A stretch of DNA of 62,955 nucleotides, filler included, from Hausera hauseri (GCA_046269625.1; 9 parts of 9 records of this genome joined end to end with filler, not necessarily neighbours in it), one strand, 5' to 3'. Positions 25,113 through 62,955 are shown, numbered from the whole stretch's first letter. Notes: generated by a model from the sequence alone, not told the origin. A program made the numbers and translations.

Positions 25113-25117
25113 AAAGA

Positions 25118-25590: not shown

Positions 25591-25657
25591 ATAACTGACG
25601 TAATAAAAATCGACTTAAATCGGTTATAGTAGTATATAAGCAACTCACACGCCCAAT

Positions 25658-25989
25658 GGTCTTTCTGTTTGAAAATGTTTACGCTATTTGATAACAACGT
25701 TTACATGACCGGTTATGCTGTACTACTATAACCGATAGGGTTGGCGAAATTGGTTACGGTTTCCCTGTATAGAAACAGAGTGTTGATACACAATAGGGGA
25801 TACTTTGGTGAAAGCGACAAAAAGTACCCGACGAAAACATGCATTTCGCTAACCCACGAAGAGTTTGAACAACTCGTCGCCTTGGAGAGTGACTTTTTAT
25901 CCGCCGGCAGTTACATAACGATAGAACCAAAGGATATTCCAGAACGAGAACCGTTAACCGACTCGTCCACGCAAACTGAATCTCTATAG
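25658..25989 (+). pseudogene. PC4-like ssDNA-binding/coactivator protein
   Basis: KLVTVSLYRNRVLIHNRGY...KYPTKTCISLTHEEFEQL matches the PC4 core pattern. Confidence 0.7.
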
Positions 25990-27038: not shown

Positions 27039-29712
27039 ATGGCACTACGAACGATTCAAATACAGGTACTATTGGTGATCTTATGTGGCACGCATTGTTC
27101 GTTAAGTATACCGGATATGAATCGTTTACCCATTACGCCACGCATTCGCCATTCCATCAAGGAAACCAAACATCGAACTGATAATATCAAAGATGAACAT
27201 ACACATTTTCAAAATATACATGACCTTGGGTGTGAACCATCTAATAATGATTCTCTCCTGAATTGTAGCTGTTCACTGGAGGCCAAGGCTGCAAACTGTT
27301 CCAGCCGTCAGTTTGATCACGTTCCACAGAATCTTCCTTCGGATATTATTAGCCTGGATTTACGTTACAACAACATCGCCTGCTTGCGTAGCAACGATTT
27401 TGCAAAATATCCATTGCTGGAACATCTTAACATCTCCTATAATCAAATTAGCGTGCTCGACGAATATGCATTTCTGAATTTGTCGAGGTTACTTACTCTG
27501 GACTTGCGTAACAACTCACTGGAAATGAAGAAACATATGTTCCCGGATAATGTTTTCCTATCACTGAAAAAATCCTTAAAATTTCTGAGCATTAATCAGA
27601 ATAATATAAACCCAACCAAGGGAGGGTTGCGGTATCCCGATCTTGCTCTCTCACGTCTAACAAACCTAGAAGAACTTCAAATGGATGGTTTATCTGTTAA
27701 TGTTGCTGGGCCTTTTGGTGTGGGGTGTAGGAGTATGACAAACCTGACTCGGTTAACACTTATTGGAAACAACACAGGTCGTTGCAATTTGAAGGTACTG
27801 CGGAGTGATACGTTTGAAAATCTAGGACACATAGAGCATTTAAATATCGCAGATTGTGATATTCGTGGTGCTAATATTGATCGTAAGGCTTTCATGCCAT
27901 TGTTAAACCTGCGCACGCTTGATATATCTCATAACGAAAAAATTGGCATTGAAAATTTGAATCGAGTCTTTTATGGTCTTCGAAACGCAAAAAATCTGAC
28001 ACATCTTCACATGCAGTTGATAGTCAATAAATATTCTTTGGGCGTTTGCCTTGAGAGTAGATTTATCAAGGACTTTCCTCAACAGGTGACCTATCTCGAT
28101 GCCAGAGAAAACAATTTAGAAGCACTGGATAGAAATGTCATTCGGTCGTTGCCTAAGTCTCTTGAGGTTTTAGATTTAAACGGCAACAGGTTTATATTTA
28201 GAGCATATTTATTAGATTTGCCGAAATTAACCAATCTCAGGTCGCTGAAATTAAGCGGTGAACCATCAACTTATCATGTACCTTCCGTTTATCCACTTCG
28301 TTTTAGAAAAACAGTTTACACCGGTAACGGTTCATGTACAATATACTTAACTACAAAGGAAAATTTCGTATTTCAGCTACCTCCAAATTTAAGTTTTATA
28401 GAAATGAACAAAGCCGGTCTAAATTATATTTTGTCAAATCTTAAATTCGACAAGAAGAATTCTCTAGAAAATGTAAGTTTGTCCGGTAATCGTTTTCCAT
28501 ATCTTCAGGGACCTGTTTACGGACTTCATGCTTTGAAATATCTCGACCTTTCCTCGAGTTTTATTTCTAGAATTTCGGACATCTTTTTTCAAAATATGAG
28601 TTCCCTGGAGATTCTTAGATTGGATTTTAATTTGATCGGAAGTTTATTTGCTGATGAGAGTCACGTTAAAGTGTTTTCACATTTAACAAATTTAAAAGTG
28701 CTAAATTTATCTTACAATGGCATACAGCGCATAATGCCAGATAGTTTCGCAAATTTGACAAATCTGACAACACTGCTGCTAACGAAAAACCCTTTAGTGT
28801 CGTTTGATGTGGACATTTCGCGAATGAATCAACTTCAAATTTTGAGTTTGGCCATGAACCACATACCATCTCTGAACCAGGACGCACGACGTCATATCAG
28901 TAAACAAATCAGCAGAGGTATACAATTTCAAGTCGACATGCGCTTCTGTGAGATAAACTGTGATTGCTTTAATATCGACTTTCTAACATGGATGACGACA
29001 TCTGGAGCTTTTGACAACCATTTTGAAAACTACATTTGTTCTTCCCCTGGTGTAACTGATCAGGCCATTACAGATGGCTACAAACGAAGTATTTCATTGC
29101 TTTCTAAAAAATGTTTTTCCAAATCATTGCTATTTTTTATTGTAAGCTCAGTTACCATAGTTAACAGCTGCGTTTATTGTCGGCTCCGTTTTGTTCAGAT
29201 TTCGTTGGAATATTCGTTATATGTACTATGCCGCGTATTTGAAATACAAAGAAATCTCTACTTCCAATGAGCATAAGTTCGACTATGATGCTTTCATTTG
29301 TTACTCTGAGAAAGATGTAGATTTTGCTGAACAAATTTTGGACAAAGAATTACACCATCGAGGATGTAAAATATTTCTCCACAGGCGAGATTTCACAGCT
29401 GGGGAGTACATCTCTTCAAATATTGTCAAAGCTGTATGCTCCAGTAAGAAAACTGTTGTTGTCCTGACAAACTCACTATTTGATAGCCAGTGGTGCGCCT
29501 ACGAAATAGAAATGGCAAAGATGGAAGGCGTTTATAGTGGGCGACAAGTTTTGATTTTTCTAATTATGGAGGAAATTCCTCACGAGAAGCTTGGCAGAGA
29601 TCTGTTATATAACATTAAGAACAACACATACCAGGAATATCCGGCAGTGCATTGTGGGGCTGAACAGCTAAAGCTTTGGTGGGACAAACTGGCCTCAGAT
29701 ATTAAAGATTAA
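27039..29712 (+). CDS. TLR: Single-exon Toll-like receptor (signal peptide, LRRNT, LRRs, LRRCT, TM, TIR) with a frameshift at ~29160
   Basis: LRR consensus repeats, LRRCT CDC..F..W; TIR boxes YDAFICYS, HRRDFTAG and SQWCAYE in ORF 29191-29712. ATG 27039 follows a splice-acceptor-like TTTATCCTCAG. Confidence 0.93.
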
Positions 29713-32865: not shown

Positions 32866-35617
32866 TTATTTCCATCCCCAATGTCCATACGCCCAACTCT
32901 TATTTCGTCCCACCTATTTCGTTTATCATCGTTACATAGCAAAGCGACTTTCGCACTAGTTATTGTATACAGCTGGTGCTCAATTGGTCGGATGATTGTT
33001 TGAGGCACAACAGCAACTGATTGTCCTCCAGCTGCTGCGGCTGCTGCTACTTCATATATACGGTTATAATCACCGTGGCCAATTTCCGTCTGCTTCAGCT
33101 GGACTCCTTTTGTTTGCATTTTCGGTCCACAGTCCGTCAGAAGCCTGTAGCACTTTGAGCGTAGGAATGTCCATTCCCCATACTGAACCCTGCCTTCACT
33201 TTCATCCTTGAAGCAGCTGATTTTGTTGGTGATCGCGCTGCTGTAAAACGGATGATCCGGTGGGTAGTTTAACGTGTTCAGTAATTCATCTGGCTGCATT
33301 TGCTGCAGTAGGTGTTCGCAATTGACGTTTTTCAGCCGCAGGAAAAAACTGTCTGTCACCGGCAATTATAATAATGTCACAGCCGTCAAACATTTGCCGG
33401 TATCGTGCCAAGTTGCGATACTGTAGCTCATACATCCGCAACTTTCTCAGGTCCAATATTACTTGTCCGATGTAACTTGGACGGTACAGAACGACTTCTT
33501 CTCTGTTTAACAGCACCTCAACGAATCCATCGGCAATGTGCATTGATCGCCGAAACTGTGTCTTGCTAGTATACGTAACCAGCTGCTTTTCGCTGTTGCT
33601 TAGGCGTACATTGAGCCGCCTTTTCATATTCTCCACTGTTTTTCCGTACAGAGAATTGTTTTTCAGCTTGTAATAGTACATTTCGAACTTTGTACAAGCT
33701 GCGGCTCGTTCCATCTATGTATGCCTTGAATATTGGAGACTGAACAAATATGATGGCGCGATGTAGCCGTGTGACGCGTAAACCCAACTGCATGTAAAAT
33801 TTCAACAGACGCCAATGAACTATGTAATTTTGCTTGAGTTCATCCTTCATAAGCAGCTTCTTCATCTTCGAACCCTGCGGTCATTTGCTAATTGATGCGA
33901 CATGCGATTCATCCAGAAAGTTATGCAGCTCATCTGGTACCACGAGATCGACCTCCATCAGGTATCCAACTGAGCTGTTTTCTGCTCTTGTCGTGTTTGC
34001 TTTCGACAGATTTTCCAGTATTGTATCCAGGTCCTGATTGTCGACTACCCATTCGAATAAACCGTACGGCAAGGGTTGTGAAAGAGCCCAGCCGTACAAG
34101 TTATTAATGTCGATATACAACAATGATGTAGTATCATCACTGGTTACGTGATGCTTGTTGACAAATATCATGCCGCCGCAAATACCAACATCAAACAGCA
34201 GGTACATTTCCGGGTCTTTCAATAGCTCGATATCCCAATACAGTGACATAAGAGCTGATGCCCAACTCATTCCGGGTATTGAGTAAAAGTTGAGTGGTTC
34301 CAGCCTATCTTCCGCCAACGCCTTCGCTTGAAACGCCTGGAACACATCGGCTAATAAGAACACGTCAAATTTGAGATACTGGAGCATGTACTCCAACATT
34401 TTTCTACAGCCCAGTTCTGTCAAAGGTTCCTGTGCTCTCCGATATTCATCTTCTATGATGCCTGTCCATCGCGTCGGTAATTCCTCTGCTGTCCGGAGTC
34501 GCTCGTATGATGTTGCAAAGTCATATGGGAATATGCCTTCACTGTGTGCGATTTGTATGGGGAACTGCGTTGAAGTTATCGGCACATCCAGCAAGGCATT
34601 TACCAGCTTCGCCAATGATTCATTGAGAAATTGCAATGAATCAAGGAAGCGTACTTGGAACCGGTTTATGCGTGCTGCCAGGGACAGATACTTCTCCATT
34701 GTTGTAGGGATTATGGACAGTTCCCAGTGCGGAAATCCGCTGATGGCCCATTTCAGTATATGGTGACAATAATAACCTCGGAAATTGTGAAAGATCACCG
34801 GTAGGAATGGCCGCACACGTCTTGTTAAATTGCATGCTACTCCCAGGTATCGACCGGTGAAATGATCATGGTTCGGTACGAGCCATTCCTGTGCATCAAA
34901 AGCAATATTTTGTGGCAGAGGTAACATTCATCGGTGGCAGCGAAAATCAGCGGTTCATATTCGTCTGCCCATATCAAGGGCTTAGTGCTATTGTTACTGT
35001 ACCATGGTGCGATTTCCGTTTCCACTATCGTTTCCAACTGTTTCTGGAAATCGTGTATACAGTTCCAGCCATGAAAAACGTAATATTGCAGTTGTCCGGC
35101 GGCTTTTATTGGAACCACCAACATACGAACGGCGACTGGAATGTGCTTTTGGTCGTATACGTTGTGCCGCGGTAGGATTGCCTCGATATTGGCATATAAC
35201 ACATATGCCGGACTGTCTGTTTTCGACAAGTCACTGAATCTCAGCTCCTTTTTGACTGGAATGACGTACATTGTTGTCCCTGAAGAATTTTGCCTGCACA
35301 GCGCCACATGTTTTTCCAATGTCGTTTTTGACCTGAAACCATGCAAACATGTAGGGCACCATTTACAATTTATACGCTTTGTGATAAATTGGTGGTGATC
35401 CATGTTCAGCAGTCTGTCCAAATTGGTTACTGCCACATAGTGAAATTTATCTGCTTGCTGAAACAGCAGCAAATTTACCGAGCGTCCATTCGGGTTCCGA
35501 CTGCTATAAATTATATCCACGTGTGGGGTTTTGTATATCTCTTCATCTGCTGGTATTTCTACGATTGTATTGTACCGGAACACGTTGATTGCCAGTGTCG
35601 GATTACGCCGTTCAAAA
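32866..35617 (-). pseudogene. Protein-primed PolB (copy 2, 5' truncated by contig end)
   Basis: YANIEA, HDHFTGRYLG, FHNFRGY, YLKFDVFLLADVF, SLLYIDINNLYGWALSQPLP, KLKNNSLYGKTVEN, DDKR. Confidence 0.93.
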
Positions 35618-37434
35618 NNNNNNNNNNNNNNNNNNNNNNNNNNNNNNNNNNNNNNNNNNNNTTAATTAATTAANNNNNNNNNNNNNNNNNNNNNNNNNNN
35701 NNNNNNNNNNNNNNNNNATCAAATACATGTCCGGTCAAAATGTCATCGGTCAGTCTCTGAATTTCACTTTCAATATACTCTTCCATTTGATTTAGTGTAA
35801 TAGTAGTAATGTTGATGCACGTTTATAGCCGATTTAGGCGACATCTGAGACTGCAGTAAGGGGAATAAGTTATGGTGTATTTTAATTAAATTTATTTATT
35901 TATAATTAATACATTTTATTTGTTTTTAGTTTAAAATTTACTTTAATTTGTTTATCATTCAGAAATCTTTGCAATATCCCATGTATTGCGTTTCTCGCAC
36001 ACATGACGGTCGACAATGCCACAAGGAAATGGCCAAATATTTTTCAGTTGCCAAGGACACGTACATGTGTCCCGTGTGTTTTATTCAAAACACATGCCCG
36101 TACGCCAATTTTTATGAGATGCACAAGCATCACCTCGTTCCGTTCACGCGGTCCAAGAAAATGATGGTTGTGCATTGCCCCACATATCTGGGATACTGTA
36201 GTAGTAGTAGAGTGCATGACTTTGATGGTTGCCATAGTGTAATGCGGCAGTATTATGACGCCATAATGGTGCACTGTAAACGGGCCTACGTTTGTCCCGG
36301 TTGTTCTATAGTTGATGAAGTCAGCTATGAACAATTCTATAACATTCACAAGGACCACTTGAAACAGTTTCAGAGGTCCAAAAACGAAATATTAATGGAC
36401 GCAGCAAGAAGCATCAGGAAACGTCAAGCATCAGCATGCCTTGACGAATACTTTTAAAACAACAGAAGTCAGAAACAGCAGCAGCAGCAGCAGGAACGTG
36501 AGCCGCCCATTATTCTGAAGTACGACCTGAACAGATCGTACGTGGACATGTCCTCGAAAACAGAAACGCAATTGAAGGATATACCCGCTAATGTGCGTAA
36601 CCGGTTGGAATAATGGGTGGCCAATTTCCGACAACAACAACACTGCAAAGTGCAATATTAAGCACTTGCAGAATTTGAAAATCTGCAGGGTGACAGAAAA
36701 CAATGGTACCTGACACAACGAGCCGTACCATACTCTAAGGATTTTATTGCCGATGTAGGCCAAAAACTTGACGAAAAAATCGCCTACTACACCAAAAAGG
36801 GAAGTGGTTGGCGAATTGTAAAGATTGTCACTCTCGGCTTTATTTTGACCAGGACGAGTGACATGATTTACATGTCTCGATGTTCATTCATACCGACACC
36901 TGCATCCTTGAAGCAGTCTCTGGCGGTAGTGAATGTACAAAATACTAACGGCGAATACTGCTTTATTTACAGCATTCTGGAGATACTGAAATATGATCAA
37001 GTGTCCAGACATGCAAATTGTCCGAAGCAGTACAGTAAGTATATCTCAGAATTGGACTATGACGAGTGTTGGATGCCGATAAAACTCAAAACCATTGCGG
37101 CTTTTGAACGGCGTAATCCGACACTGGCAATCAACATATTCCGGTACAACACAATCGTAGAAATACCAGCAGATGAAGAGATATAGAAAAACCCACACGT
37201 GGATATAATTTATCTCAGTAACCAATTTGGACAAACTGCTGAACACGGATCACCACCAATTCATCAAAAAGCGTATGAATTGTAAATGGTGTCCTACATG
37301 TCTGCATGGTCTCATGTCAAAAAATAACATGGGAAAAACATGTGGCGCTGTGCGGACAAAATTCATCAGGGACAACAATGTTCGTCATGCCAGTCAAAAA
37401 GGAGCTGAAATTCGGTGGCTGGTTGAAATCAGAT

Positions 37435-39420
37435 TGTGGCGCCCACAGCGGCCGGTGCCCTTTGGCCCATTTGGTTGGACACGGCCGGGCCTCCGTCGCC
37501 GCCGCGTCGGTCCCATAGTGGACCCCGACTTTCCGCCTCGAAAGAGTATCCATGATACCAAGGCCTCAGTACGTTATCGTTCCCTTCCGACAAATGCGGA
37601 CGTCAATGCTGGATTGTGTAAATTGATTTATCAAATGCTGCTCATTGATCCTCGACAGAGACCGGCAATTTCGGAAATACTCAGTTAAGTCAGAGTGCAG
37701 GCGATATCGGCCAACATTTTACTGAAACCGTCGATAATGTTCGATAAAGGATCCTTGAGTTTTTTTGCCTCTGCTTGTACTTTTTCCAAACAAAGAAGAA
37801 TCTCCGCATACAACAAATTCACCGAAACATTGTCCAGCACGTTAAGCAACACAACACCAGCCACCAATTCCGAAACAACCATTACCAAGTTAACCAGCAA
37901 CGAAGCCGAAAGTTAATCAAGTCGGTATGTCATCATCGTTCGAATTTCAAACAGCCGGACTGACGAAATCGTCCATTGGTGCACAAAACAATTGACCGAT
38001 GAATGCTAATAATGATGGAAAAATGTATTTGGGTTTTTGAAAGAAGGTACCGGAAGTTTAATGAAAAGTATTCTGGATGCATCGAATAAGGTTATGGAGC
38101 AAGTGTTTGCTTCGATCAACAAGACGGAACTCGACATTCACTACGTTACTTCCAGAATAATTATTATGCCGTCTCCCGGTGAAACAGGAATCGATACCAT
38201 TACTCGGGACAAACTCGATGATATTCGAACATATCTAGAGTTCAGACACACTAATCAGTATTTTATTTACAATTTCAGTTTTCGATTGCTGAAAACTAAA
38301 AATCAAAGAAAGAGTTCTCCCGAATGGGTTTCGACTTTGCCAAGCTACCACAATTGAATACACTTGTCCAACTATGCATACATCAATTTGTGTGGTTGTC
38401 GGAAAATCCGAAAAATGTTGTCATAATTCAGAGCAAAGATGGTCGCACAACGTCAGGAATGAATGTTGCAGCTCTTCTGTGCTTTTGTCCATTGATTGAC
38501 ACCAGTGTTGGTGCACGAGATATTGTGAAATTTCGACGAGCTGATGTCCAGTTTACTGCATTACAGTACAGATACATCGACTACGTCTGTCGATTGGTTT
38601 GTTCCGCATCAGAACCATCCATTTCGCTTGATATTCCGCAATCAAAATTCGATTTTGTACTATTAAAAATCTAAACAATTATTTCTTCAATCAAAATTTT
38701 GAAAATTTTCGATCATTATATTATTTGATAGCCATTTAGATGTGGTAATTTAGGTTTCTTGATTTCAAATTAGCACTTCATATTTACCACTGATGAAATG
38801 TTCAAATATGTAAAGATTGCCAAATTTTACAACGTTCACATCGTTGTATGTTAATGCGTCACTTTTTTCGCGTCTTATACATGTTCCCTTTATATTTATT
38901 GACAGTTTTCTGTTATTCTAATATTTCATATACTCATTTTCAGTTGCTGTGGTAAATTTTTCCAAAGAAAAAAAACAGAAATTGTACATAAATCAGAATC
39001 CTCATCAGAATAATGACGTTCGATTGTGACTACTGTAAACATTTTGACAAAATAAAGTTATTTTTGTCAAAATCAGAACTGTTATAGTTATGAATGTTTT
39101 GTCTATGTATGTATGTATTTGTGCGTTTGTGTAAATACTTCTGTCTGAATATTTGGAATTTTTCTACATAGTCGTTTTGATCTTTTTTGTATTCGACAGA
39201 TATTAAATTTGTTTTAATAAACACAATATTTGTGGGCTTTATGAATTTGATTTTTGGTATTACCATATTGGAATTTTGTCTTCGATCTGATTTTTTTCAT
39301 TTAAATTTTGAATTAACAAATCGTTGTAGCCATTTTGATGATTTTTTATTCAACTGAATTTTTAGTTTTGACAAGTTCTATCTTACCCTCGATACATGGA
39401 TATTATTCAGCAAGATAATA
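37435..39420 (+). mobile_element. Solo-LTR-like insertion with 5-bp TSD (CAGAT 37430-37434 / 39421-39425) carrying host gene fragments
   Basis: The uninterrupted PolB copy 2 reads GAAAACAGACAGTCC across the site. The insert starts TGTGGCGCCCACAGCGGCC, 16/19 identical to the post-PPT LTR start at 55816. Confidence 0.8.
37520..38674 (+). pseudogene. GAK: Intronless cyclin G-associated kinase (GAK)/auxilin fragment: kinase C-lobe end plus PTEN-like domain
   Basis: LIYQMLLIDPRQRPAISEIL, then LKEGTGSLMKSILDAS.KVMEQV..ELDIHYVTSRIIIM..YFIYN..WLSENPKNVVIIQSKDGR..QYRYIDY. Confidence 0.8.
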
Positions 39421-41944
39421 CAGATAGTCCGGCATATGTGGTCTATGCCGATATCGAGGCAATCCTACCGCAGCACAACGTATACGATCAAAAGCACATT
39501 CTAATCGCCGTCGGTATGTTGGTTGTTTCAATAAAAGCTGCAGGACAACTGCAATATTACGTTTTTCATGGCTGGAACTATGTACGCGATTTCCTGTAAC
39601 AGTTGGAAATGATTGTGGAAACGGAAATCTTACCGTGGTACAGTAACAATAGCACTAAGCCCTTGATATCGACAAACGAATATAAACTACTGCTCTTTGC
39701 TGCCACCGATGAATGTTACCACTGCCACAAAATATTGCCTTTTCATGAACAGGAACGGCTCGTACCGGACCATGATCATTTCAACGGTCGACATTTTGGA
39801 GCAGCATGCAACGCACGCAATTTAACAAGGCGTGTGCGGATATTTCTACCGATAATCTTTCATAATTTCCGAGGTTATGATTGTCACCATATATAGACAT
39901 GGGCCATCAACGGATTCCCGCACTGGGAACTATCCATAATCCCAACAACAATGGAGAAGTATTTGTCCCTGTCAGAACGCATAAGCCTGTTCCACGTACG
40001 CTTCCTTGGTTCATTGCAATTTCTCAATAAATCATTGGCAAAGCTGGTAAATGCCTTGCCGGATGTGCCGATACCCTCAACGCAGTTCATCACACATACT
40101 GCACGCAGCAAAGGCATATATCCATATGACTTTGCAACATGATATGAGCGACTGCGGACAGCAGAGGAATTACCCCCACGATGGACAGGCATCACAGAAG
40201 ATGAATATCGGAGAGCACAAGAATCTTGTACTTATTAGCCGATGTGTTCCAAACGTTTCGAGCGAAAGCGTTGGCGGAAGATAGCTTGAACCACTCAACT
40301 TTTACTCAATACCCGGAATGAGTTGGACATCAGCTCTGATGTCACTGGATCCGGATATCGAGCTATTGCAAGACCCGAAAAATACCAAATGTTTGATGTT
40401 GTTATTCGGGGCGTCATGACATTTGTCAACAAGCATCACGTAACTAGTGATGATACCACATCACTGTTGTATATCGGCATTAATAACCTGTGCGGCTGGG
40501 CGCTTTCACAATCCTTGCCGTATGGTTCATTCAAATGGGTAGTCAACAAACAGGACATGAACACAATACTGGAAATGCGTCAAGAATGGACACGACAACA
40601 GCAAAAAACAGCTGAATCGGATACCTGATAGAGGTCGATCTTGTGATACCATATGAGCTTCGTGACGTTTTGGACGATTTACCAATCCACCATTTAACCA
40701 ATGTCCACCAGGTTCGAAGGTGAAAAGGCTGCTTATGACGCATAAACCCAAGCAAAATTACATAGTTCATTGGCGTCTGTTGCAATTTTACATGCAGTTG
40801 GGTGTACGCCTCGCACGGCTACATCGCGCAATCCGATTTGCTCAGGCTCCCATATTCAAGACGTACATAGGTGGAAATTCGGAGAAACGAGCCGCAGCTT
40901 GTAAAAAGTTTGAAAAGGACTACTACAAGCTGAAAAACGATTCTTTCTATGGAAAAACAGTGGAGAATGTGAAAACGCGTCTCAATGTCCGCCTATGCAA
41001 TAGCGAAAAGCAGTTGGTCATGTACACGAGTAAGGAGCAGTTTCGGCGGTCAATGCACATTGCCAATAGATTGGTTGCTTTGCTGTTAAACAGAGAAGTC
41101 GATCTGGACCGGCCAAGTTACATCGGACAAGTGGTACTGGACTTGAGCAAGTTGGAATGTATGAGCTGCAGTATCGCGATTTGGCACGTTACTGGCAAAT
41201 GTTTGGCGGCGGCGGCGTCATGATCAAAATAATCGCCAGTGACACAGATAGTTTTTTCTTAAAACTGGAAAACGCCAATCGAGAACAACTACTGCAGCAA
41301 ATGATGACAGACGGATTACTGGACACGTCAAATTACCCACAGAATCATTCATTATAGAGCAGTGCTATCACAAACAAAATCGGCTGCTTCAAGGATGAAA
41401 GTAAAGATCGGGTTCAGTATCGGGAATGGGTATTTCTACGGCCAAAATGTTATAGTTTGTTAACTGACTGTGAATCTAAAATGCGCACCAAAGGAGTTCA
41501 GTTGGCCCAGACGGAAATAAATCACGGTGATTATCGCCGTGTCTATGAAGAAGAATGAGGAAAATCAAGATCTGTTGTGTCTCAAACGATCATCCGATCG
41601 ATTCAGCACCAGCTGTATACGGTAACCAATACAAAAGTCGCTCTATCATGCAATAATGATAAGCGTAAGTGGGTGGGGCAAAATAAGAGTTGGGCGTACA
41701 GACATTGGCGTTTGGAATAAAACACGCACTCATGAATTCGGTGCAGACAGATCAAATTACTGTGATAATTCACTGTGATCTGCTTGTTTTGTATAAATAA
41801 TGTATATTATTCGTTGTTTTTGCCTTTTGTTTTATTAACATTTAATTTATCTATTTAATTTAATATGACGAGAAACAATATAAAAAACATACAAAATCAA
41901 TAAAATTTATTAATCATCATAAGCTAACATCCAAAACAAAGTAA

Positions 41945-43769: not shown

Positions 43770-44108
43770 TTAATTTTGTGTTGTTGTCGATTCACTGACG
43801 CAAAATAATCCCCATTGTCCCGGTGACATTACACTGAATCCTGCATCTTCACAGCTAAGAAAAACGATTTGTGCGATTGCACTGCCTTTCGAAAAAGCAT
43901 ACGGTTCGCCGGATTGGTTTTCCAGTAACACTTTGATTTTACCACGAAAGTCCGAATCAATGACACCGCCGACAACCGTCAGTCCGAGCTTTGCCAGTCC
44001 GCTTTTAGATAACAGTTGGCCGTAGTAACCGGGTGGAATCGCCAATCGAATCCCAGTCGTTATACATTTGATTGTGCTGTCCGAAATTGTCGTATTGACA
44101 TTGGAAAA
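43770..44108 (-). CDS. dut: dUTPase (5' truncated by contig end; motif V altered)
   Basis: TGIRLAIPPGYYGQLLSKSGLA..GVIDSDFRG..IAQ (motifs II-IV). Confidence 0.9.
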   Translation of the reverse strand, partial: FSNVNTTISDSTIKCITTGIRLAIPPGYYGQLLSKSGLAKLGLTVVGGVIDSDFRGKIKVLLENQSGEPYAFSKGSAIAQIVFLSCEDAGFSVMSPGQWGLFCVSESTTTQN

Positions 44109-45519: not shown

Positions 45520-45805
45520 GATTATCCAAATAAAACGTGTTTTGTCTACGATTATTGAATGAAAATCATATGAATGAGAGGAGCAATCATCCAGAATCAC
45601 CGAGGAGGAAACAGAAAATATACGAGCATTTACGAGACTGCGGATTGTTGCAGACTTGTAAACATTTGGAAACCAGACTGGCTACCAAGAAAGAGTTAAG
45701 TCTCATTCACAATATAGATTACATCAACCGACTCCAAGAAGTCTGTAAAGACTCTGCTGATATACATCAAAATTTTGAAAATGACTGCAATTCTATATAC
45801 GATTA
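45520..45805 (+). pseudogene. Intronless class IIb histone deacetylase (HDAC6/10-like) fragment
   Basis: NHPESPRRKQKIYEHL..GLL..C..LETRLATKKELSLIHNIDYI...NSIY; similarity ends abruptly. Confidence 0.75.
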
Positions 45806-46005
45806 TTGCTGGTATTCATTTATGAATTCAACGAATCCAGTAACATGCTTCTTTGCATCAACCAGCCGACGAAACGTTGTTTGTATTTTCGAAGCTTATA
45901 CCGGACAATTTCTTTGACTATGGAATTTAGCTACCAAAAAACGTCAGAGACAATCTGAACTCACGGCGAATCAACTGCCAAGATGGAGTCTACAGAGTCA
46001 TAAAA

Positions 46006-47670
46006 ATGCGTATTCGTCTGCTGAAGTTAGAAATTGTTGAGTCTACCATCAAAACGACATCACCAAGGCCTGCTCGTCAATTGCGCCAAAAGCCATTGGC
46101 ACCACCATCTCTCCAGAAACCAGAAAAATTGCCAAGAGATAGAAATTCGAAGCGCATTTTCTGTACAAGAAAAGAAAATCGCCGTAGCAGTGCAATAGCT
46201 GTATCAACAGAAGTAAAACCAAGACGCGTTCGGCAACTGCGGTCGCCAAGTAAAAATAAGAAATTCAGTCCATCGGTTGTGGGAAATTCTCCATTAATAC
46301 TAAAGCTTTCTTCAAAACTAGCACAGTCACCAAAGTGCGAGTCCCCGCCGCCGTCCAAATCGACCGGCAGCATAAAGTTACGACTGAAGCGTACTCAGGA
46401 AATATCAACTGTGACAGAAACGAAACAAGATGACAATGCATTCGAATACAGTCAGACCCCGATAACGTTAGCACCTCCGATGCAGCCTCGACAACGCTTC
46501 CAGCACGCTGTTTTACAGTTTAGTCCGATTCAGTTGAGTTCCGACAGTGAATCGGGTGCAGCGTATAATGAAATAAGCCGTCTTTCGCAGCGTCAGGAAC
46601 AGCGAGAACCTCTCGAGTCGACTTCTATTGATCAGGGTTGTTCATTTTTTCAACTTCCCGTTCCGTATCTAAAGGGCACCAATCCCACTGTATTCATGGA
46701 TCCTCACGAGGTTGATTTGGTAGTTGTCAACAACGCCATGTACAAAGAAGTGTGCAATGTAGCAGCAGATGCTCGAAAAGCGCTTGTAGACGTCGTGTGT
46801 GATAATATCTCCAGAGAAATGTTCGTGCCCGGTTGTTACGTTGATCAGAAAAAAGCCAGTTTATCTTGGCATTATTCGAGCCCATCGATGCCAGTTCTAG
46901 CTCCACAGGAACCGCATTCCGGTACTGGTGATGTGAATAAAGCAACTAGTATGTTTGTTTATGGCCAGACTGTGTCCAACCAAAATTTCCAGCCCTACTC
47001 AGATCCACCAGACCGTGTCCAACAATCGCCGTTGTGCATGGCTGCAACGTTCCAGTCGAATCAGTATACTTCCCAATCGCCGTTCTGCCAATAACAGCAG
47101 CCACAACAGGACCAGAACTACCACTATCCGTCTAGTGGAGGATACAATTACTCGTCTCAGTCCACGGGCCAAATGCACCCCTCACCCGTCTGCTCCAGCG
47201 CAGTGTGTTCCACTCAACTGCAGGACTATTCGAACTTTCAAAGTAGCGCACAACAATCGGTGCAGTCTTATTCTTCTTCCTGCGATCCGTTATCATTTTC
47301 ATCAATGCCGATTGCCACCTCCAATTATCCGTCGTCCGAATCTCACGTGTCTAAATATACCAAAAACAAATGGTCATCCAGTCGCAGTAAAGCACATAAG
47401 AATTCGGCTACCTCGAAATTTCGGACCCGCCGAGGCGAGGCTGAGGTCCCGGCCGCCCCCCCTGCATTGGTGGGTCAGACGGCGCCTTTCGCTGCCGCCC
47501 CACGACACGCCCTGGGCACACCACCTCATCTTATCTCCTTTTCTTTTTTTCTCAACAACAAACACATTAGCACACATACAGTAACACATTTAACACAGCT
47601 GCCATTCATGAAAAAATCTCTACCTCTCTTCACTCCTTCAATTTCTACATCACACATAATGGATCTCTAG
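46006..47670 (+). CDS. Long low-complexity (basic, S/P/Q-rich) ORF upstream of gag, with a single in-frame TAA at 47092-47094
   Basis: ORFs 46006-47094 and 47173-47670 are in the same frame with no other stop; product unknown. Confidence 0.5.
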
Positions 47671-51900: not shown

Positions 51901-51982
51901 ATATGTAAACTTAACTTTCCTACTGCTACTGCTCTCTAATTGAATTCTTGTATACATCACTGCACATTTACATACATTTATT

Positions 51983-53153: not shown

Positions 53154-55815
53154 GACATACCGAAAACGGCTGTAACAACACCTTTCGGCCTTTTCGAGTA
53201 TGTTTTCATGCCATTCGGACTTCGTAGTGCCTCACAAACATTTCAAAGGCACATAGATGCGGTGCTCGCCGGTCTAAGCTTTGCGTTACCATATATAGAT
53301 GACATCCTCATCGCTTCGTCATATCCCAAGCAGCATTCTGAGAATTTATGCATAGTTTTTCAACGCCTTAACCAAAATAATCTAGAAGTAAATTTCGCCA
53401 AATGTTCTTTTTTCTAACACAAGATCCATTTCCTTGGTCATGTCATCACCAAATTTGGCCACTCTCTTCAGCAAGACCGCATAACGCAGCTTAAGAACAT
53501 CCAATTGCCACGAACAACAACTGAAATGCGCTCTTTTCTTGGCACACTCCACTTTGTTTACATATATGTGTCACATTGCTCTGAATTAACCGCACCGTTT
53601 GCATATTTTATCGTCTGGAAAGAAGAAACAATTAATTCATTGGACTCCCGAACTTGTCAACCAGTTTGACCTTTTACGTGAAAGTTTAAAAGCTGTCGGA
53701 ATTCTAGCATACCCAAGCCTGATGCAGAGCTGATATTAACAACGGATGCCTCTACCAAGGAAGTCGGCGCAATACTGCATTAAATTTCTAATGGCATCAA
53801 CGAGCCTCTGGAATTTTATACTCGGAAACTTACACCACCAGAAAATCGTTATTCAACTTTAGACAGAGAGCTCTTAGCTATAGTATTATCTCTAAAACAC
53901 TTTTTGCATTTGTTAATTGCCAGATCTTTTACAATCCAAACAGACCACAAACCACTGCTTAGTATTATGAACATGAAAGCCCCTTCACCCCGACAGGAAC
54001 GCCACATATCGTACTTGTCGACATTCAGTTTCAAAATGGTACATATTTCAGGTACTAACAATCTAGTTGCTGATTTTTTAAAAAGATCGTTAACATCATG
54101 GGAGTCACGCCGATTTTTTCACAAGCTGTACTTCAGCAGAACGTACCAACGCAGGATATTCTTAAATCCTTTAAATCACACCAAATCATTGACGGCGATG
54201 CCCATGACACTTCTAAACCCGGCAATCACAAACCTATACTATCCTAATCTTTGCAAAGAACTGCATTTCATATCGTGCATTCTCTTCATCATCCGGGAGC
54301 TAAAACAACTTTTCAGCTCTTACAACGTAACGTTAAATGGCCGTCAATGAGATCATAGGTACAGGCGTGGATTAAGGAGTGTGTGGCATGCCAGAAGTTT
54401 AAAACTAACAGACATCTGAAGCCACCCCTTTATCATTTCCCCTGTACATCGCGTTTCGAATCCGTGCATATTGACCTAGTCGGCCCTCTTCGACCAGATA
54501 ACGGTCATCAATTCATATTGACCACGATGGACCGTGCTTCTCGATGGCTAGAGGCCATTTCATTATGCTTCACCAACATGGACGCAATCGCTGATGTTTT
54601 CATCAAAACTTGGATCAGCAGATTTGGCTCATCTCGTTTCATTATCACGGACCAAGGTCCGCAATTTGAGTCAAATCTCTTTGAAGCCTTAGTCAATCGC
54701 TTAGGGATCAAACACATATACACTTCTCCATATAATTCTCAAGCGAACGATTTACTTGAACGATTTCACCGCACAATGAAAACCTCGCTCAAAATCCTTG
54801 CTGAATCACACAGAACGGGACATTACTTCTTCCACTTATCCTGATCAGTTGGCGTAACACACCTTCTACAACTACGGGTTGTGCACCAGATGAGGCATTG
54901 TTTGGGACACCTATTCGGGCACTTTATAAGTTAATTGATTTAGAGGACACACCAACATATGAGCTAATTCGAGATGCGCAAAATCACTTTGTTGCATTAA
55001 ACAGGGACTTATTTTACAAAATTGTAAATAACACCAAATCAAATATACCAGATTATTTATATGCCTCCAAATTTGTCTGGCTTCGTAATCCTTCACCCAG
55101 TGGTTTTCAACCGCAATACATTGGTCCGTTTAAACTACTGTCTTTATCCTCTCATACGGCAACGATTCTTAAAAATGGCAAAGAACAGACTGTGCACCTA
55201 ACAAAATCTGCTTTCTTTGCTGATGATTCTCCCGAGGATACACAAACCAACACCAACTCTACTGGTACTTTTCTTGATTCTTTTGCCACCATTTCACCCC
55301 CATCCAATTTAACTAACCACACACGACATTCACGTAAAGGCAAATCTCATTCAGATTTTTCTCCTCAACCTTTTCCAAATTCTCAGTCTCCTTCACATAT
55401 TCAACCTTCCTCAAGCACGCCTTTTCTGACTCTACTCTACTGAATATCTCTCCTCATTTCTCTTCAAATGCCCAATCTCCCTCCAATCCTAAGGTCTTCA
55501 CACCTGCTCCACCTCTTATATCTTCCTCACCCTCGGCTGACTTTCCTTTGCAACCATCATTTTCCACAACTAAAACACCTTAAACGGTAAATTCAGATAT
55601 TTTTCCACAACTTACACCTCTGCAAGCAAACTCAAAATACGCAAGCAAAATACGCAGAGTTACCTTCAATAAGTACAGTGGAGAACAAAATTTCGACAAA
55701 GTACAACGTCTGGCTCACACAAAAACCGAGTAAGACAGAAACACTTTTCTCTTTTGCAGATTTTGCCTTTCATGGTTTTTCCCTGTATAGTCTTCACTTT
55801 GTTACGGGAGGATGA
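53154..55815 (+). mobile_element. Gypsy element A: decayed RT, RNase H, integrase and 3' UTR, ending in PPT GGGAGGATGA
   Basis: MPFGL..YIDDILIAS, TDAS, DRELLAI, TDHKPL, HIDLVGPL, ITDQGPQFES, ERFHRT. Confidence 0.93.
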
Positions 55816-57563
55816 TGTGGTGCCCACATTGGCCAATTTAAGAAAAAAACTATGGAATTAGCAAATAAAATCATTTGTAAAGTTATCATAAATCTATATA
55901 AGTTAAAAATGAATGTGCCGTAATTTCAGATTTCACGATACCCGCCAATCTGGTGTTGTTTAAATAAAAAGAAAATTTTTGAGATTAAAAATTTAAAAAA
56001 ATAGATTTTCAGTTTTTTTCTTCATTCTGCCATTTTTATTTTTCAAAGTAATCAAATCACATTTTTATTCAATGGCTGTACAGACTCATGTTTTGTTGGG
56101 AGGAAGGTTCTGTTTAAAACAAACTGTCGATGCTGATTATTTTTGCAAATCTTTAAAATCCCTATTGGCCATTTTTTGCAGAAACTGCGAAACTCATAAC
56201 CTTTCTCGGGAATAGGTTAGAACTCGCTACAAATGCGGGTAATTTCTTGATGCTATTCAACTCTGATTTGAATCAGAACGAATTGGAGATTAAGATGAAA
56301 CTCAACAATGGGGATTCACGTGACATTAACGATGACACGGCATTTGAGACCGTTGTTAAAAGCCCTTCTGATGGTGAAAATTATACTTTGGACTTTACGA
56401 ATGATGAATCGATTGAAAACGAATATAAACCGGAAATACAAAAGATCAATGGTAATCCTAGTAATTTGAATTTGTTCCCCGATGATTACGAGGAATTCCC
56501 CGAAGGCCACTATTTCGTCAAAAAGACCGTAAAAAGAGGTTTACTTCCTGCAGATTTTACGTCGGTTGAAAATCCAGTTAATACATTTGAACATGATCCA
56601 GCAGCAATATTTATGTCAAGCACGTATATTTGGAAAACTAAAGCGATTGCTCTGTATTTAACACCTTTTCCTCTCTGTGTAACCGTTATAGATTCATCAG
56701 TACAATCATTTGGCATATTATTTCCAAAAATTTAATCAAAACACGGATTGCAAATTCCTGGACATTTTTCAGATTACATTCGTCAAGCTAAACCCATGCG
56801 ACAGCAAGTTACCCAAATTAATTATCGACTAAAGACGGATAGCCATGTAATTAGTCGAACTGCTCAGGAAATTAGCTCTCCGGGTGTGCAAGTCTGGTCG
56901 TTGCATGCTTTAGCTTTAATTGCAGATTCTGGAGTTTTGTCTCTTTTTTTACAATCTCCCCATCACTAACTGATGTTCATCAATATCTTGGTAAAGTTCT
57001 GAGTGCATTAATAACAACTTTGGGGTTTGAACTTCAAAGCCATTCTCCCACAATTATCAGTCTCAGAACGTCTTGTACGTCAGTTGTTCGATTTTGCAAA
57101 GTACGTCCTGATTCTTTAGTTCAAGCTGAATCAGTTTGTTGCGTTAGGCAACTTCATACGTTTGCTATATGTAATAGAAATCTTTCATCCTTTGTTCATC
57201 ATTTGCATGATGGCTTATCCAGTCACCATTTGTTGCTATGGCGAGCTGTGATTGCGTGTTTACGACAATTGTCCCAAAAAGAAAGTCCAAAAGAAATTTC
57301 CGAAACCGTTTCCCTAATTCTCAAGGAAAAGAAAAATACAAATAGCAAAAATTCTAATATAATTCCCGTGAAATTTGCTAGAGGTGTTTCTTCAGATTCG
57401 ACAATTGCAGCTTTTCTGAACCCAGGTTTACAAAAAAGATCGGTGATTTTACTAAATACCTATTCCGTAACAATTTTTAAAATAATTACAACTAAAGCAG
57501 TTCAATCACTGTATTCTGTATTTTTCAGCATAGTTAATTCAGTTAGAATGATCAGTTATCACA
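55816..57563 (+). mobile_element. ~1.75-kb LTR-like unit (TGTGG...TCACA) between Gypsy A and B, carrying host-gene cargo
   Basis: Starts right after the PPT; ends ..TCAGTTATCACA shortly before a PBS-like TGGCGCGCCCG (57577). Confidence 0.6.
56570..57340 (+). pseudogene. HEATR5: Intronless, internally deleted HEAT repeat-containing protein 5 (HEATR5/Laa1) fragments
   Basis: EHDP, PLCVTVIDSSVQSFGILFP, HFSDYIRQAK.MRQQ, SPGVQVWSLHALALIADS, GFELQ, DSLVQA..QLH.FA..NLSS..SSHHLLLWRAVIACLRQLSQKE. Confidence 0.85.
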
Positions 57564-57576
57564 ACGCAGGAATTTT

Positions 57577-60500
57577 TGGCGCGCCCGTGTTTTGCGCACC
57601 ATGCCACACCAGACATCTAAAAACCTCATTTTTTAACTCTCGTTTGAAAATAAACGCACGTACACATACTACAAACATCAAACAGAAACTATTACATATT
57701 TGTTATGGGCTGTACAACGAGAAGCATTACCGACTAATTGTCATCTCAGTTTTAATGGATTCTTTTTGCAGCAATCCGATATTGTCACTAGCTATACCCG
57801 CTCATCTTTGACACCTATACTAACTGCACATTACTGTTTGTTAGGCGGATCTGACCCAAACTCCACCGTCTACTGTAAACCTACGTTGCGTAGAATATTT
57901 CGTCGACAAGCAACACTCTAGCCGGACATGGTTGTACTTTCATGCAGCTTGCTTGAAATCAAATAATATAGTCGATTCGTTTCTTAAAGCAAACAGTTTG
58001 CTCATGCTCTTGCCTTCTAACATTAAGTCGCAGCTTCCCAATTTATCGGAAATCTTCCTAAGTGGCGACCCATATAAAATACTTTTTAACTCTATCTTAA
58101 AAATTACCAAACCATCTCTCGATAACATCATCCATAAACATTTTAGTGATACCACCATAGGAACATTAAAACCCTCAGAATTTCTACAAACGTCACTAAT
58201 TCAACTGAGTACTGTTGGTGTTAATCAAGCGAACAACGCCGATTTATTACGCAGGTATTTTCTGCAATCTTTACCCAGAGATATACGTGAGCTGCTGACC
58301 ATAGTACAGGATACATCATCATTATAAAAACTAGCACAACTGGCTGACAAAAACAACGAGATTTTGCATGCACATGCAGCACCATTAGTAGCCGCTACGT
58401 TACAAGCACCAACAACACAACAAGCTAGTGACATAGCTAATTTAAACTCACAGATAAATTCCTTACGGGCTGAAAACACGGCAATACACCAAGCCATTTC
58501 TTCTCTTACGTCTAAACTGGACAAATTATCCATGCCGAGACGAGAACGATTTACGCCTAATCACAGTCGCGCTTCATCGAACAATTCGAAATCCTCTAGA
58601 TCACCTACACGATCAATAGTGTGCTATTACCACACCAAATTTAAAGTCAACTCCACTAAATGCTGTTTAGGTTGCAAATTTTATGTTCCCATTTCAAACG
58701 ACCCGACAATATCTGTATCTATCATAACAAATTCAATACTAAAGCACATAATTGCGCTACTGGATGCACTTTCGTTAAGCGAGCTACTTCATCACGATTT
58801 ACTCTTTCCAACAACATAAGTCCTGTGCCTCCAAAAAACTTATAAAGCCGCCAGATGTTTCGGAACATACTGGCACTGGCAAACATCGTCAATCTAATAG
58901 CCGTACTTATGCCGTTTTTACACTAAAAGTTTCTCTAACTTCCGAATCCAATCAACCCATCAACTTCCTAATTGACTCAGGCGCTGCCGTTTCTTTGTTA
59001 CCACCATTGATCAAAACACCATTCATTTCACCATCCAAAACTAAATTATACACAGTTAACGGCCAAGCTTTACGCATTTTCGGCACGTCCAAAGTTTTAT
59101 TCACTTTGCCACCATTCCCCAACATTTTCAATTGGACATTCATCGTTGCCGACATACAATCTCCAATACTCGGATCTGATTTCTTACCTTAATACAACAT
59201 TCTTGTAGATTGTAGACAACGTCGGATCAACAAAAGCAGTTCAACAAAACCTACCTCTACAAATAACCAACAAATAACGCAACCTATCTCGCCTATAAAA
59301 TCCATATTAAAAGAACCATCAGTTAACGCAAATAAGAACGTCATTAATACCAATATAAATAATCCAATGTTTTTGTTGCAGTTCGGTAATAGAGGAACAA
59401 AAAGAGTTGACAAGGCCGATTTAGGCGACTCGATTTCTTGCGTTTTTAATCAAACCACTAATTCCAATTAAACCACTGTCGTGACAGCAACAGCCTTTAC
59501 TATGCTTATCCAAGAAATGCAACGATATCTTACCAAATTTTGTTTCCATACAATTAAAAAAGACCTAGTATTTCGACAGGCTAACACGACTCTTCATCAT
59601 ATCATCACAGAAAACCTTAGGCCCGTTAGGCGAAAACTCCGCCCACTTTCACAACGGCGTCGACAGGCAGTACAAGCGGAATTCTGTGCACTCGAGCAAA
59701 CTAGCATCATAAAACGCTCTAAATTACCATGGGAATTACCACTCCACGTCGTCCCAAAGAAAGATAGCACATTCCGTCCATGTGGTGATTATCGACAACT
59801 TAATAATGTCACAACCATTGATGCTTATCCTCTACCGTTGATTAAGGATATATTGCATTCTTTACACAAGACTACGATTTATTCAACCATAGATCTCGGA
59901 AAAGCCTACCACCAAATACCGGTATCACCAGAAGACATCCCAAAAACGGCCATTATAACACCTTTTGGTCTTTTCGAATACGCATTCATGCCGTTCGGTT
60001 TAATGAACGCAGCACAAATTTTCCAACGGCACATCGATTCAGTTCTTTCAGGCTTGCCATTTGCATATCCATACATTGTTGGCATACTGGTCGCATCGGC
60101 ATCGCCCAAACAACATGAAGAACATCTCAGACTAGTTTTCCAACGTTTGCACAACTACAATTTGCAAGTGAACTTTTCTAAATGTTCCTTCTTTCAGAAA
60201 AGGTAAATTTCCTTGGCCACGTCATCACACCTGACGGGCACAGTCCAGAGCCTGATAGAATCCATCAGCTACGAAACATCGAGGTACCAAAAACGACTAC
60301 TGATATGCGTAGTTTCCTTGGGACTTTACATTTTGTACATAAATACGTCCCACACTGTAGCCAGTTAACTGCTCCTTTCGCTCAACTAGGAGCAGGGCCA
60401 AAGAAAAGGCTCGTATATTGGACACCAGAACTTATTAACCAGTTCGATGAACTTCGCAACAAGCTCAAAACAGGCGAAATTTTATCCTACCCAAAACCTG

Positions 60501-62386
60501 ACGCTGACCTCATTTTAATAACCGATGCATCAACTACAGCAGTAGGAGCAGTTCTTCATCAAATATCTCAAGGTACAAATGAACCGTTAGAATTCTTTTC
60601 GCGCGAACTGTAGCCACGATAACGCCGCTATTCTACCTTCGATAGAGGAATCTTGGCTATTGTTTTAGCTCTGAAACATTTTTCACACTTACTTATCGGT
60701 CGTTCCTTCACCATTCAAACTGACCACAAGCCTCTCGTTCACGTAATGAACATGAAACAACCATCACTGCGACAAGAACGTCACATATCATATCTGTCAA
60801 CATTCAACTTTAAAATATGCCATATTTCGGGCACAGACAATTTAGTAGCTGATTTTTTATCACGGTCAGTCGGTGCAATCAGTGTGACGCCTATATTCTA
60901 CAAGGATCAATTGATCCAGAATTCCCCTTCTAATGAAATTCTGAAACAATACAAATCCGTGCAAACTATCAATGGAATAGCCAAGGATACTTCGACACCT
61001 GGACAACATTTACCAATTTTGGCACCTCCTCTCCAACAAACTGCATTTCAACATGTTCATTCTTTGCATCACCCAATTTCCAAGGCTACATTCCGCCTTC
61101 TCAAACGCCACGTAACATGGCCATCGATAAGGTCTGATGTACAGAGCTGGGTTAGGCAATGCGTAGCTTGCCAAAAGTTCAAAGTACCTAAATATCTTAA
61201 ACCACCATTATTCCATTTCCCATGTACATCCCGCTTTGAGTCAGTTCACATAGACATCGTTGGCCCATTACTTCCGATAACAGCCACCAATTCATCTTAA
61301 CAATGATGGACCGCGCGTCTCGTTGGCCGGAAGCCATCCTCATGCGCTTAATCAATATAGACTCCATTGTCGAAGCATTCATAAAGATTTGGATTAACCG
61401 GTTCGGTTCACCTCGCTATATAATTACAGACCAAGGTCCCAATTTGGATCGAACCTATTCAAATCTCTAGTTAATCGACTGGGCATAAATCATATACACA
61501 TAACTCCATACCATCCCCAGTCGAACGGCTTACTAAAACGTTTTCATCTCACTCAAAATCTCATTAAAAATCCTGGCCGAAACTCATAAGAATTGGACAA
61601 ACATCCTTCCTTTTGTTCTACTCGGATGGCGCAATACGCCATCTACTACCACCAGTTGTGCACCCGCTGAAGCACTTTTTGGTACCAAAATTCGTGCACT
61701 TTTTGAACTCACCGATTTGGACAACACACCAACTGACGAAACAATTAGGTCTGCACAAAATCATTTTGTTCATTTAAACCAGGATTCTTTCTGCAAAATA
61801 GTACAATGTGACAAAACATACTTACCTGACTCTCTATTTAATGCAATGGTCGTGTGGATAAAAAATCCTTCACCTTCCGGATTCCAACCAAACTACTTAG
61901 GTCCATATAGAGTTCTCAATCTAACTTCTCACACGGTTACAATACTAAAAAACGACAAAGAACAAAATGTGCACATATCTAACGTAAAACCTGCATTTTC
62001 GTTAATGACACACCGGATTCAACAACTAACTCTGCACATACCTTCCTTGACTCCTTCAACCCTTCATCTGTTTTACCACAGAGACAACCTGCTATTCCAA
62101 AACCCGAATCAGTACAAAAAACTATGTTAAAAGAAATACCGAATAGTTCTCAAGCTGCTGACACGTGAAATCAAAATTTAACTTCCTACCAACCAACTCA
62201 GCAAACAGTCAAACAGCAGGGTAAAAAACACAAGACAGTCACCTTCAGAAAATACAGCAGGGAACAAAATATCGACAAAATTCAACGTCTTGTCCATACA
62301 AAGACTCATTAGTTCGCTTACACATGTCTGTCTTGTTTTCTTACTCCCGTTACATTAACACAGTGCCATCTTCGTAACAGGAGTAG
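57577..62386 (+). mobile_element. Gypsy element B internal region: gag (~57870-58850), protease (~58960), RT, RNase H, integrase; PPT ~62378-62386; decayed
   Basis: FLIDSGAAVSLLP, RPCGDYRQLN, MPFGL, YIVG (mutated YIDD), TDAS, TDHKPL, HIDIVGPL, ITDQG, GPY. Confidence 0.93.
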
Positions 62387-62955
62387 TGTGGTGCCGCGAA
62401 CTCGGACGCCACCACAGTCTAACTGCACCGAATTCTGCAATAAACACAAAGATATCGATTTTCTTCAATATACGTTTCAACAACAATGTCTGGGTTGAAT
62501 CTAGATTCGGAAATCGACTCGGTATCAGTTGTCGCAGGTCTACAACAGGTAAAAGCTCGACTTATGCATCAAGAAGTGGGATACCAGAAACCGTTATTTC
62601 TGGAGCCCACTACAGACTGCCATGTTCACCATTCTTCCTTGAAAACGGAAGTTCCTTAGCCTGGGTTATAATTCACTACAAATGGTCGACCAGGTTGTAC
62701 CAAAATTCAGCAGATCGGGTTTAGAGGTCTTCTTATAGATTGGCCTCCAAAAACGAAAAGGGGACGTTAACCCATTAAAGCAGTCAAATAAAACGACTGA
62801 AATACGAACAGCAAAAAAACGAACAAATAAAACAAATAATTTTTATTGTTATTCTTCATTTCGTCCGCTGATGCGTAAGAATCCTCGGTTGAGGAAAGGG
62901 TCACGTTAACCCTCGTTTTCCGGCGTGGACATATCGGAATGTCATCCGATCCTGA
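62387..62955 (+). mobile_element. Start of the 3' LTR of Gypsy B (truncated by the window)
   Basis: TGTGGTGCC immediately after the AGGAGTAG polypurine tract. Confidence 0.65.

Follow-up and report, generated by a model that had tools for sequence, protein, structure and literature searches.

How did a decayed fragment of a host gene, GAK (auxilin), come to lie inside the PolB gene of a Polinton, behind the start of a retrotransposon long terminal repeat (LTR)? The question arises in Hausera hauseri (GCA_046269625.1), in a 62,955-nt stretch of DNA (the window) that consists of nine contigs of 4-10 kb each, joined with an artificial N spacer. The insertion sits in contig 6 (35718-44108), an uninterrupted PolB paralog on contig 5, and Gypsy elements on contigs 7 and 9. 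As the contigs are joined artificially, the order of paralog, insert and Gypsy elements in the window is meaningless: the PolB copies 2 and 3 and the Gypsy element of the initial annotation lie on different contigs, and no linkage between them is implied. The window was compared with the contigs of one independent-looking run (X1), the single run used, which contains 0.37 of the sampled words.

The insertion itself is confirmed, with both of its edges defined by the PolB sequence that it interrupts:

37102..37434, plus strand: Polinton PolB gene left of the insert, with one stop and frameshifts (paralog comparison)
37430..37434, plus strand: left copy of the target-site duplication, CAGAT (flanks compared with the paralog)
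39421..39425, plus strand: right copy of the target-site duplication, CAGAT (flanks compared with the paralog)
39426..41311, plus strand: Polinton PolB gene right of the insert, with several stops and frameshifts (paralog comparison)
33884..35617, minus strand: uninterrupted PolB paralog on contig 5, the empty-site reference, with the junction near 35210-35220 (paralog comparison)

The insert occupies 37435-39420 (1,986 bp) between CAGAT at 37430-37434 and CAGAT at 39421-39425. Compared separately, the two flanks are 88-94% alike to the contig-5 paralog on its minus strand, the left match running to 37433 at 89% and the right one taking up again at 88%; the paralog has the 5-mer once, as CAGAC, and reads KTD-SPAY where the interrupted gene reads KSD-SPAY. 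Judged by composition, the 5-mer would match by chance with a probability of about 0.001, and at least six joints in X1, derived from Polinton paralogs, skip the insert. An insert of this length between CAGAT repeats, splitting PolB, is thus just what had been described initially. The repeats are present; the 5-bp length assigned to the duplication is one of several readings, since 3 bp (insert TG..CA), 4 bp (..AC, or ..ACA minus one A), 5 bp (TGT..ATA) and, with one mismatch, 6 bp are all possible. As in a solo LTR, a duplication stands on both sides and the internal domain is absent.

The insert is made of three parts, a 109-bp GC-rich cap (70% GC), about 1.08 kb of GAK (41% GC) and an AT-rich tail of about 0.8 kb (27% GC), and its beginning has counterparts behind two polypurine tracts (PPTs) of Gypsy elements:

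37435..37543, plus strand: LTR 5' end (the cap), beginning with the CsRn1 integrase motif TGTGGYG (motif; high-copy in X1)
37544..38625, plus strand: decayed GAK fragment with the C-terminal end of the kinase, the linker and the PTEN-like domain (about aa 272-566), boundaries approximate (structure and protein matches)
38626..39420, plus strand: AT-rich tail, ending ..GATAATA (composition, X1, Pfam scan)
55806..55834, plus strand: Gypsy 1 PPT and LTR start (16 of 19 bases equal to the insert start)
62376..62416, plus strand: Gypsy 2 PPT and LTR start, TGTGGTG, with a 30-bp hairpin ending CACCACA (motif)

For the left end, the evidence supports a true LTR start, that of a CsRn1-type Gypsy family with many copies. 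The first bases of the insert, TGTGGCG at 37435, fit the CsRn1 5' integrase motif TGTGGYG exactly (PMC3601003, Table 3). The longer TGTGGYGCC has three sites in the window (37435, 55816 and 62387) where 0.5 are expected, with three or more in 1 of 100 shuffles; these are the insert start and the positions directly after both PPTs. The similarity noted earlier between the insert start and the sequence behind the PPT at 55816 holds, with 16 of 19 bases identical. Summed X1 depth, which is no copy number and gives an order of magnitude only, is 50,621 in the cap bin, whereas the 17 bins spanning 37628-39395 have 16-319, and high copy number is restricted to the first ~85-109 bp of the insert. In 253 X1 contigs, loose, heterogeneous letters (agreement 0.37) precede exactly 37435, the majority sequence ending in a G/A-rich, PPT-like tract. 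Fifty-seven contigs depart from the window behind 37519 with a continuation in common (agreement 0.68), which resembles 37520-37543 and then diverges, indicating that the family LTR extends past base 109 with other sequence. It is at base 109 that the insert leaves the family LTR sequence, and GAK begins where the cap stops. Since the shared sequence extends past 37519, ultra-short LTRs of 13-35 bp, prompted by the TGTGG..CCACA hairpins, are ruled out for the insert. A reading of the cap as a ribozyme, tRNA or structured RNA was likewise rejected (no Rfam hit near threshold, no tRNA, fold z of -0.7 to -1.0), and the Rfam and tRNA search found in it neither a tRNA-derived head nor a hammerhead ribozyme of a short interspersed or Penelope-like element.

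The identity of the cargo, annotated from the outset as a captured GAK/auxilin fragment with a PTEN-like part, is borne out. The piece matches the auxilin structure 3n0a (E 5e-12 and 2e-12); a HMMER scan matched named GAK proteins at 40-49% identity, scallop, hemichordate, millipede and octopus among them; and tblastn with nine full-length GAKs recovers about aa 272-566 in collinear order, frameshifts included. These lie near 37910, 38035 and 38300. A word-index protein search with the GAK piece gave 0 of 120. Whether the cargo was copied from a spliced message is less clear than the initial description, intronless and mRNA-derived, supposed. Among 115 hits, 46 were short open reading frames (ORFs), of which 31 were kept at ≥45% identity to full GAK and 15 dropped; 14 of the 31 start at one site and 15 stop at a second, like exon borders, and the insert is collinear across both. 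The sole X1 contig at 38148-38251 (251 nt, 10 differences, depth 29) also reads through the first putative border. X1 contigs near 38297 have one base more at the window's frameshift, and X1 contigs pass from the end of GAK into the AT-rich tail, as would be expected if a long exon of the native GAK locus were followed there by an intron or flank. Because the likely native GAK reads through a usual intron site, and X1 contigs join the GAK end to the tail, an mRNA origin is unproven; by the same joins the tail may be related to GAK, contrary to its first description as unrelated sequence. At least three further X1 contigs carry diverged kinase-end pieces, 86-88% alike, at 37622-37941, so that GAK pieces were duplicated more than once.

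The tail has no Pfam match in six frames. It holds a mid-copy repeat near 38600-38875 and AATAAA at 39051 and 39216; a 33-bp near-perfect palindrome lies at 39041-39073.

The leading explanation, which has an even chance of being right, is that a CsRn1-clade Gypsy LTR contributed its 5' end and the host GAK locus the following ~1.9 kb, the insert being a solo-LTR-like unit in which template switching put host sequence in place of the LTR body, a mode of capture by LTR elements that is established in animals (PMC5131818). Minus-strand DNA would have jumped to a co-packaged GAK transcript, spliced or unspliced, copied ~1.9 kb of it, and returned to the element RNA 109 nt downstream of the PPT (U3 +109), the switch-back possibly relying on 3-6 nt of microhomology. 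PPT-primed plus-strand synthesis would set the left end exactly at TG. Insertion by the Gypsy integrase would follow, and a single unit ending TGT..ATA, or ..ACA minus one or two bases, would remain, either after LTR-LTR recombination or because an LTR-sized piece had integrated directly. The unit would have landed in one of very many Polinton copies and broken PolB, with decay of both to follow.

Several observations weigh against this explanation, most of them at the right end. That end lacks the high-copy signal (X1 depth 21 at 39292-39395), and no row of loose ends marks it among the best 6 of 592 X1 rows. It agrees with the CsRn1 3' motif MSYYAMA at 3 of 7 positions if it ends in ATA, or 4 of 7 if in ACA, and ATA, AAA and ACA together make up ~10% of the trinucleotides of the tail. 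AATAAA is absent from the last 200 bp of the insert. The duplication reads 5 bp, versus the 4 bp found throughout published CsRn1-like elements (PMC2582038). The tail has a depth of 16-21 in its low bins, roughly double the 9-15 of single paralog contigs, and in X1 it is joined to the GAK end. The insert has only 19 nt in common with the unit at 55816; with 9-19 nt shared between insert and post-PPT units, these do not form one LTR family. Finally, neither junction is spanned among the X1 contigs listed. A conserved right end of under ~30 nt would probably register poorly in contigs, and the low copy number there is therefore not decisive. The last 65 bp of the insert match neither post-PPT unit (p 0.6-0.7), and the insert contains no second LTR start or cap copy. 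The caveat, raised initially, that an end in ..AATA is noncanonical is half answered: CsRn1-like LTR termini are TGT..ATA or TGT..AAA (PMC2582038), and the fit to the 3' motif stays at 3 of 7. Of the solo-LTR interpretation, the left LTR end stands; a complete solo LTR does not follow from a low-copy right end with a motif fit of 3-4 of 7 and a 5-bp duplication.

Is the insert an isolated accident, or one product of a habit? The initial annotation proposed a Gypsy family with giant, variable LTRs that carry host fragments, and the other Gypsy copies of the window bear on it:

56664..57286, plus strand: three joined HEATR5B fragments (aa 763-815, 922-956 and 974-1088 of P0130; protein match)
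57845..62130, plus strand: Gypsy 2 gag-pol, decayed, with reverse transcriptase (RT), RNase H and integrase domains (domain scan)
45588..45779, plus strand: fragment of a histone deacetylase (HDAC), upstream of a third Gypsy gag on contig 7 (domain match)
47410..47523, strand unassigned: GC-rich stretch before the contig-7 gag, weakly cap-like (alignment; reverse p 0.002-0.006, forward p 0.03-0.25)

The Gypsy 2 gag contains an exact CX2HX9CX3C, the CsRn1 signature (PMC2582038); the three contig-7 ORFs scanned contain none. The HEATR5B pieces lie within the motif-initiated 1.8 kb that separate the Gypsy 1 PPT from the Gypsy 2 gag, with gaps of 106 and 17 residues between the joined pieces; the assignment comes from one match, to a bryozoan protein (54%), among 381 candidates. 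The HDAC piece gave 0 of 41 in a word-index protein search, and the 3.4 kb before the contig-7 gag contain no 5' motif, even with one mismatch allowed. Host gene pieces are thus present in 3 of the 3 Gypsy-linked units of the window in which an LTR position can be read over more than 1 kb. Host pieces in LTR position at two other Gypsy copies favour the proposal; no element with two such LTRs is seen, and a short, diverged LTR pair around Gypsy 2 is possible. The units beside the Gypsy copies fit long cargo-bearing LTRs and also fit nested insertion, deletion, and short decayed LTRs. No clear counterpart of the 570 bp behind the Gypsy 2 PPT is seen ahead of the Gypsy 2 gag, and support for LTRs of 85 bp in the two post-PPT units is weak (p 0.16 once the first 9 bases are left out). 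An exact tRNA-Trp primer site is absent before either gag: the best matches are 10 of 12 at 57577 and 9 of 12 at 47468, and such matches run at chance level across the window (15 versus 10.2 expected). An inverted-LTR architecture, suggested by contig 7, was rejected, resting on one weak alignment among 15 tested. It is tentatively suggested, at less than even odds, that a CsRn1-clade Gypsy lineage has LTRs with a short conserved start and a tiny end, the middle being replaced repeatedly by 1-3 kb host mosaics (GAK, HEATR5B, HDAC); perhaps, with a minimal R region and no canonical primer site, strand transfer would be forced to be promiscuous and to use host RNAs.

The Gypsy copies have further features. 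At 55660-55730 and 62237-62305 a conserved, coding-like motif, V-T-F..KY..EQN.DK.QRL.HTK, ends a Ser/Pro/Thr-rich post-integrase tail, and DNA identity between the copies is 78% there versus 66% for pol. CACACCA occurs at 47517-47523 and 57605-57611, 142 and 150 bp upstream of ATGGAT and before both gag genes; the leaders at the two sites are weakly homologous, with no canonical primer site. Long open frames lie beside the gag genes at 45931-47094 (387 aa, Ser/Pro/Gln-rich, without a Pfam match) and 56157-56663 (192 aa, without a match in Pfam, PDB or Atlas), the second continuing into the HEATR5B piece and lying behind an apparent splice acceptor at 56182.

Other routes to the same structure differ mainly in how they account for the right end. 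A one-off, one-ended chimera, in which the 5' part of a short-LTR element switched onto GAK RNA, in the manner of the LTR-mediated retrocopies of Tan et al., and never regained its PPT and 3' LTR, leaving an aberrant right end, is possible but doubtful. It would explain an end that is low-copy and not motif-like, it suits CsRn1-like LTRs of 146-407 bp (PMC2582038), and a likeness between 62387-62450 and 57575-57660 (46 of 87 aligned, p 0.0085 with limits set by eye, p 0.30 with other limits) hints at short LTRs in Gypsy 2 as well. A pair only 53% identical is, however, more diverged than would suit an element that still has open stretches of 161-245 codons. In a variant of the same idea, the cap possibly holds an 81-bp LTR followed by a decayed tRNA-Trp primer site at 37516-37528: the look-alike, with one mismatch and one insertion, stands behind ..GTCCCA, but it is matched in 227 of 2000 shuffles and does not begin with TGG. 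The clean duplication on both sides also speaks against a one-ended event, being typical of two-ended integration or solo-LTR formation. It is improbable that target-primed (non-LTR) machinery inserted a chimeric LTR-GAK transcript or cDNA, or that such a molecule was captured at a DNA break. Having only one conserved end would suit this account, as would the ambiguous duplication length and a right junction that fits the paralog targets over 6 bases (AATACA/AAAACA likeness) through microhomology priming. Against it, the insert has no poly(A) or simple-repeat tail, the cap has no Rfam ribozyme or tRNA head, and the left end coincides with the first base of the LTR, as expected of PPT priming and integrase and not normally of a transcript start.

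A gene-carrying DNA transposon of Ginger, Pack-MULE or Helitron type, with the cap as its conserved end, is very improbable and largely refuted. A TGT start and a 4-5 bp duplication are Ginger features and fit the insert, and the cargo is maybe genomic and not spliced; yet the right end carries no inverted copy of the cap, terminal inverted repeats are absent, and the cap motif follows Gypsy PPTs. Helitrons have TC..CTRR ends, an A|T target and no duplication; read in this way on the minus strand (TC..CTGA), the insert would end at 37429 instead of at the high-copy end, 37435, and its empty site would lack 5 bp that the paralog sites have; a duplication is also present. The least probable account is an assembly artefact that fused the native GAK locus, an LTR start and a Polinton copy. 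Such a chimera would be favoured by the shortness of the contigs, the very repetitive genome, junctions that none of the listed X1 contigs spans, and the share of 0.37 of the sampled words in X1. Misassembly is unlikely to produce a two-sided duplication together with a left end at the family boundary, and the GAK piece has stops and frameshifts of its own and differs from the closest X1 contig at 10 of 251 bases.

The Polinton matters less than the initial annotation supposed. Its flanks have an X1 depth of 4,700-62,000 per bin, of the same order as the cap, and elements so abundant need no targeting to receive an insertion. The idea of gene delivery into endogenous DNA viruses is not supported: the insert breaks the PolB gene of an abundant, already decayed element, and nothing points to cargo transfer to an active one. 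Landing in a Polinton is therefore of little weight. Elsewhere in the window, Polinton contigs carry a MATH/TRAF domain gene (51944-52348, contig 8) and a dUTPase gene (43770-44108, contig 6), and in contig 8 a pyrimidine-rich stretch with 46% GC (50300-51010) lies between divergently or convergently opposed Polinton-like genes. In contig 4, a 3-kb unit at 23729-26756 is bounded by ~550-bp inverted repeats (80% alike) and holds a decayed ORF near 25120-25590, which by eye we take to resemble a Polinton/adenovirus-type cysteine protease (no Pfam hit); the unit is possibly a miniature Polinton derivative. The same contig contains a Toll-like receptor gene with LRR and TIR domains at 26997-29712, with an apparent frameshift near 29200.

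Searches outside the genome added little. None of 3 candidates from viral contigs was a relative by RT protein, nor any of 123 in an RT alignment scan of a sequence collection; a 21-mer search of metagenomes found nothing, and an integrase alignment gave 2 of 185 metagenome hits, each only 35% identical and uninformative. A 19-mer pattern present at 33 viral loci was set aside as chance, as these have no blastn or tblastx match to the window.

If LTRs of this lineage do carry host cargo, each replication and each solo LTR would scatter host gene pieces ('Pack-LTRs'). Cargo inside an LTR would double with each cycle and persist in solo LTRs, making a steady source of host fragments without visible retroelement genes and a natural system for studies of strand-transfer fidelity. 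If the event was a one-off, the insert is an ordinary dead chimera. In the searchable literature, which leaves most subscription journals outside, no account of Gypsy LTRs or solo LTRs with pieces of host genes inside them was found.

The closest known counterparts of the insert are CsRn1-clade Ty3/Gypsy elements (CsRn1, PwRn1, AgCR1-14; PMC2582038, PMC3601003), with which it shares the TGTGGYG start and, if its right end is read as ATA, TGT..ATA termini; the neighbouring elements of the window share their CHCC gag and a PPT directly before the LTR. In the accessible portions of these sources, LTRs are 146-407 bp long, no host coding sequence is reported in them and duplications are 4 bp, whereas the insert measures 1,986 bp, is mostly host sequence and has a 5-bp duplication as read; the clade also uses a tRNA-Trp primer site, which the window elements lack in exact form before either gag.

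The process is most like that of LTR-mediated retrocopies (Tan et al. 2016, PMC5131818), which likewise combine part of a host gene with LTR-element sequence, have no poly(A) and probably arise by template switch, and which include multi-gene mosaics, to which the HEATR5B unit is comparable. Those retrocopies keep both LTRs, the mRNA having taken the place of internal ORFs; in the insert, host sequence sets in 109 bp behind the first LTR base, and no second LTR or PPT follows. LARDs, LTR elements with extra ORFs, Ogre, Burro and Retrosat2 (PMC6431247, PMC3485330) show that LTR elements can hold host DNA and that LTRs of several kb exist; the captured DNA sits between the LTRs or beside pol/env (reviewed in PMC6431247), and the long LTRs are not described, in the parts of these sources at hand, as host-gene mosaics. 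Pack-MULEs and Helitrons (PMC6431247, PMC2773423) are, like the insert, mobile units filled with decayed host gene fragments, but the insert has no terminal inverted repeats or Helitron ends, and its conserved end is an LTR start. The feature is real, and what would set it apart from known LTR-mediated capture is a placement of the cargo within the LTR.

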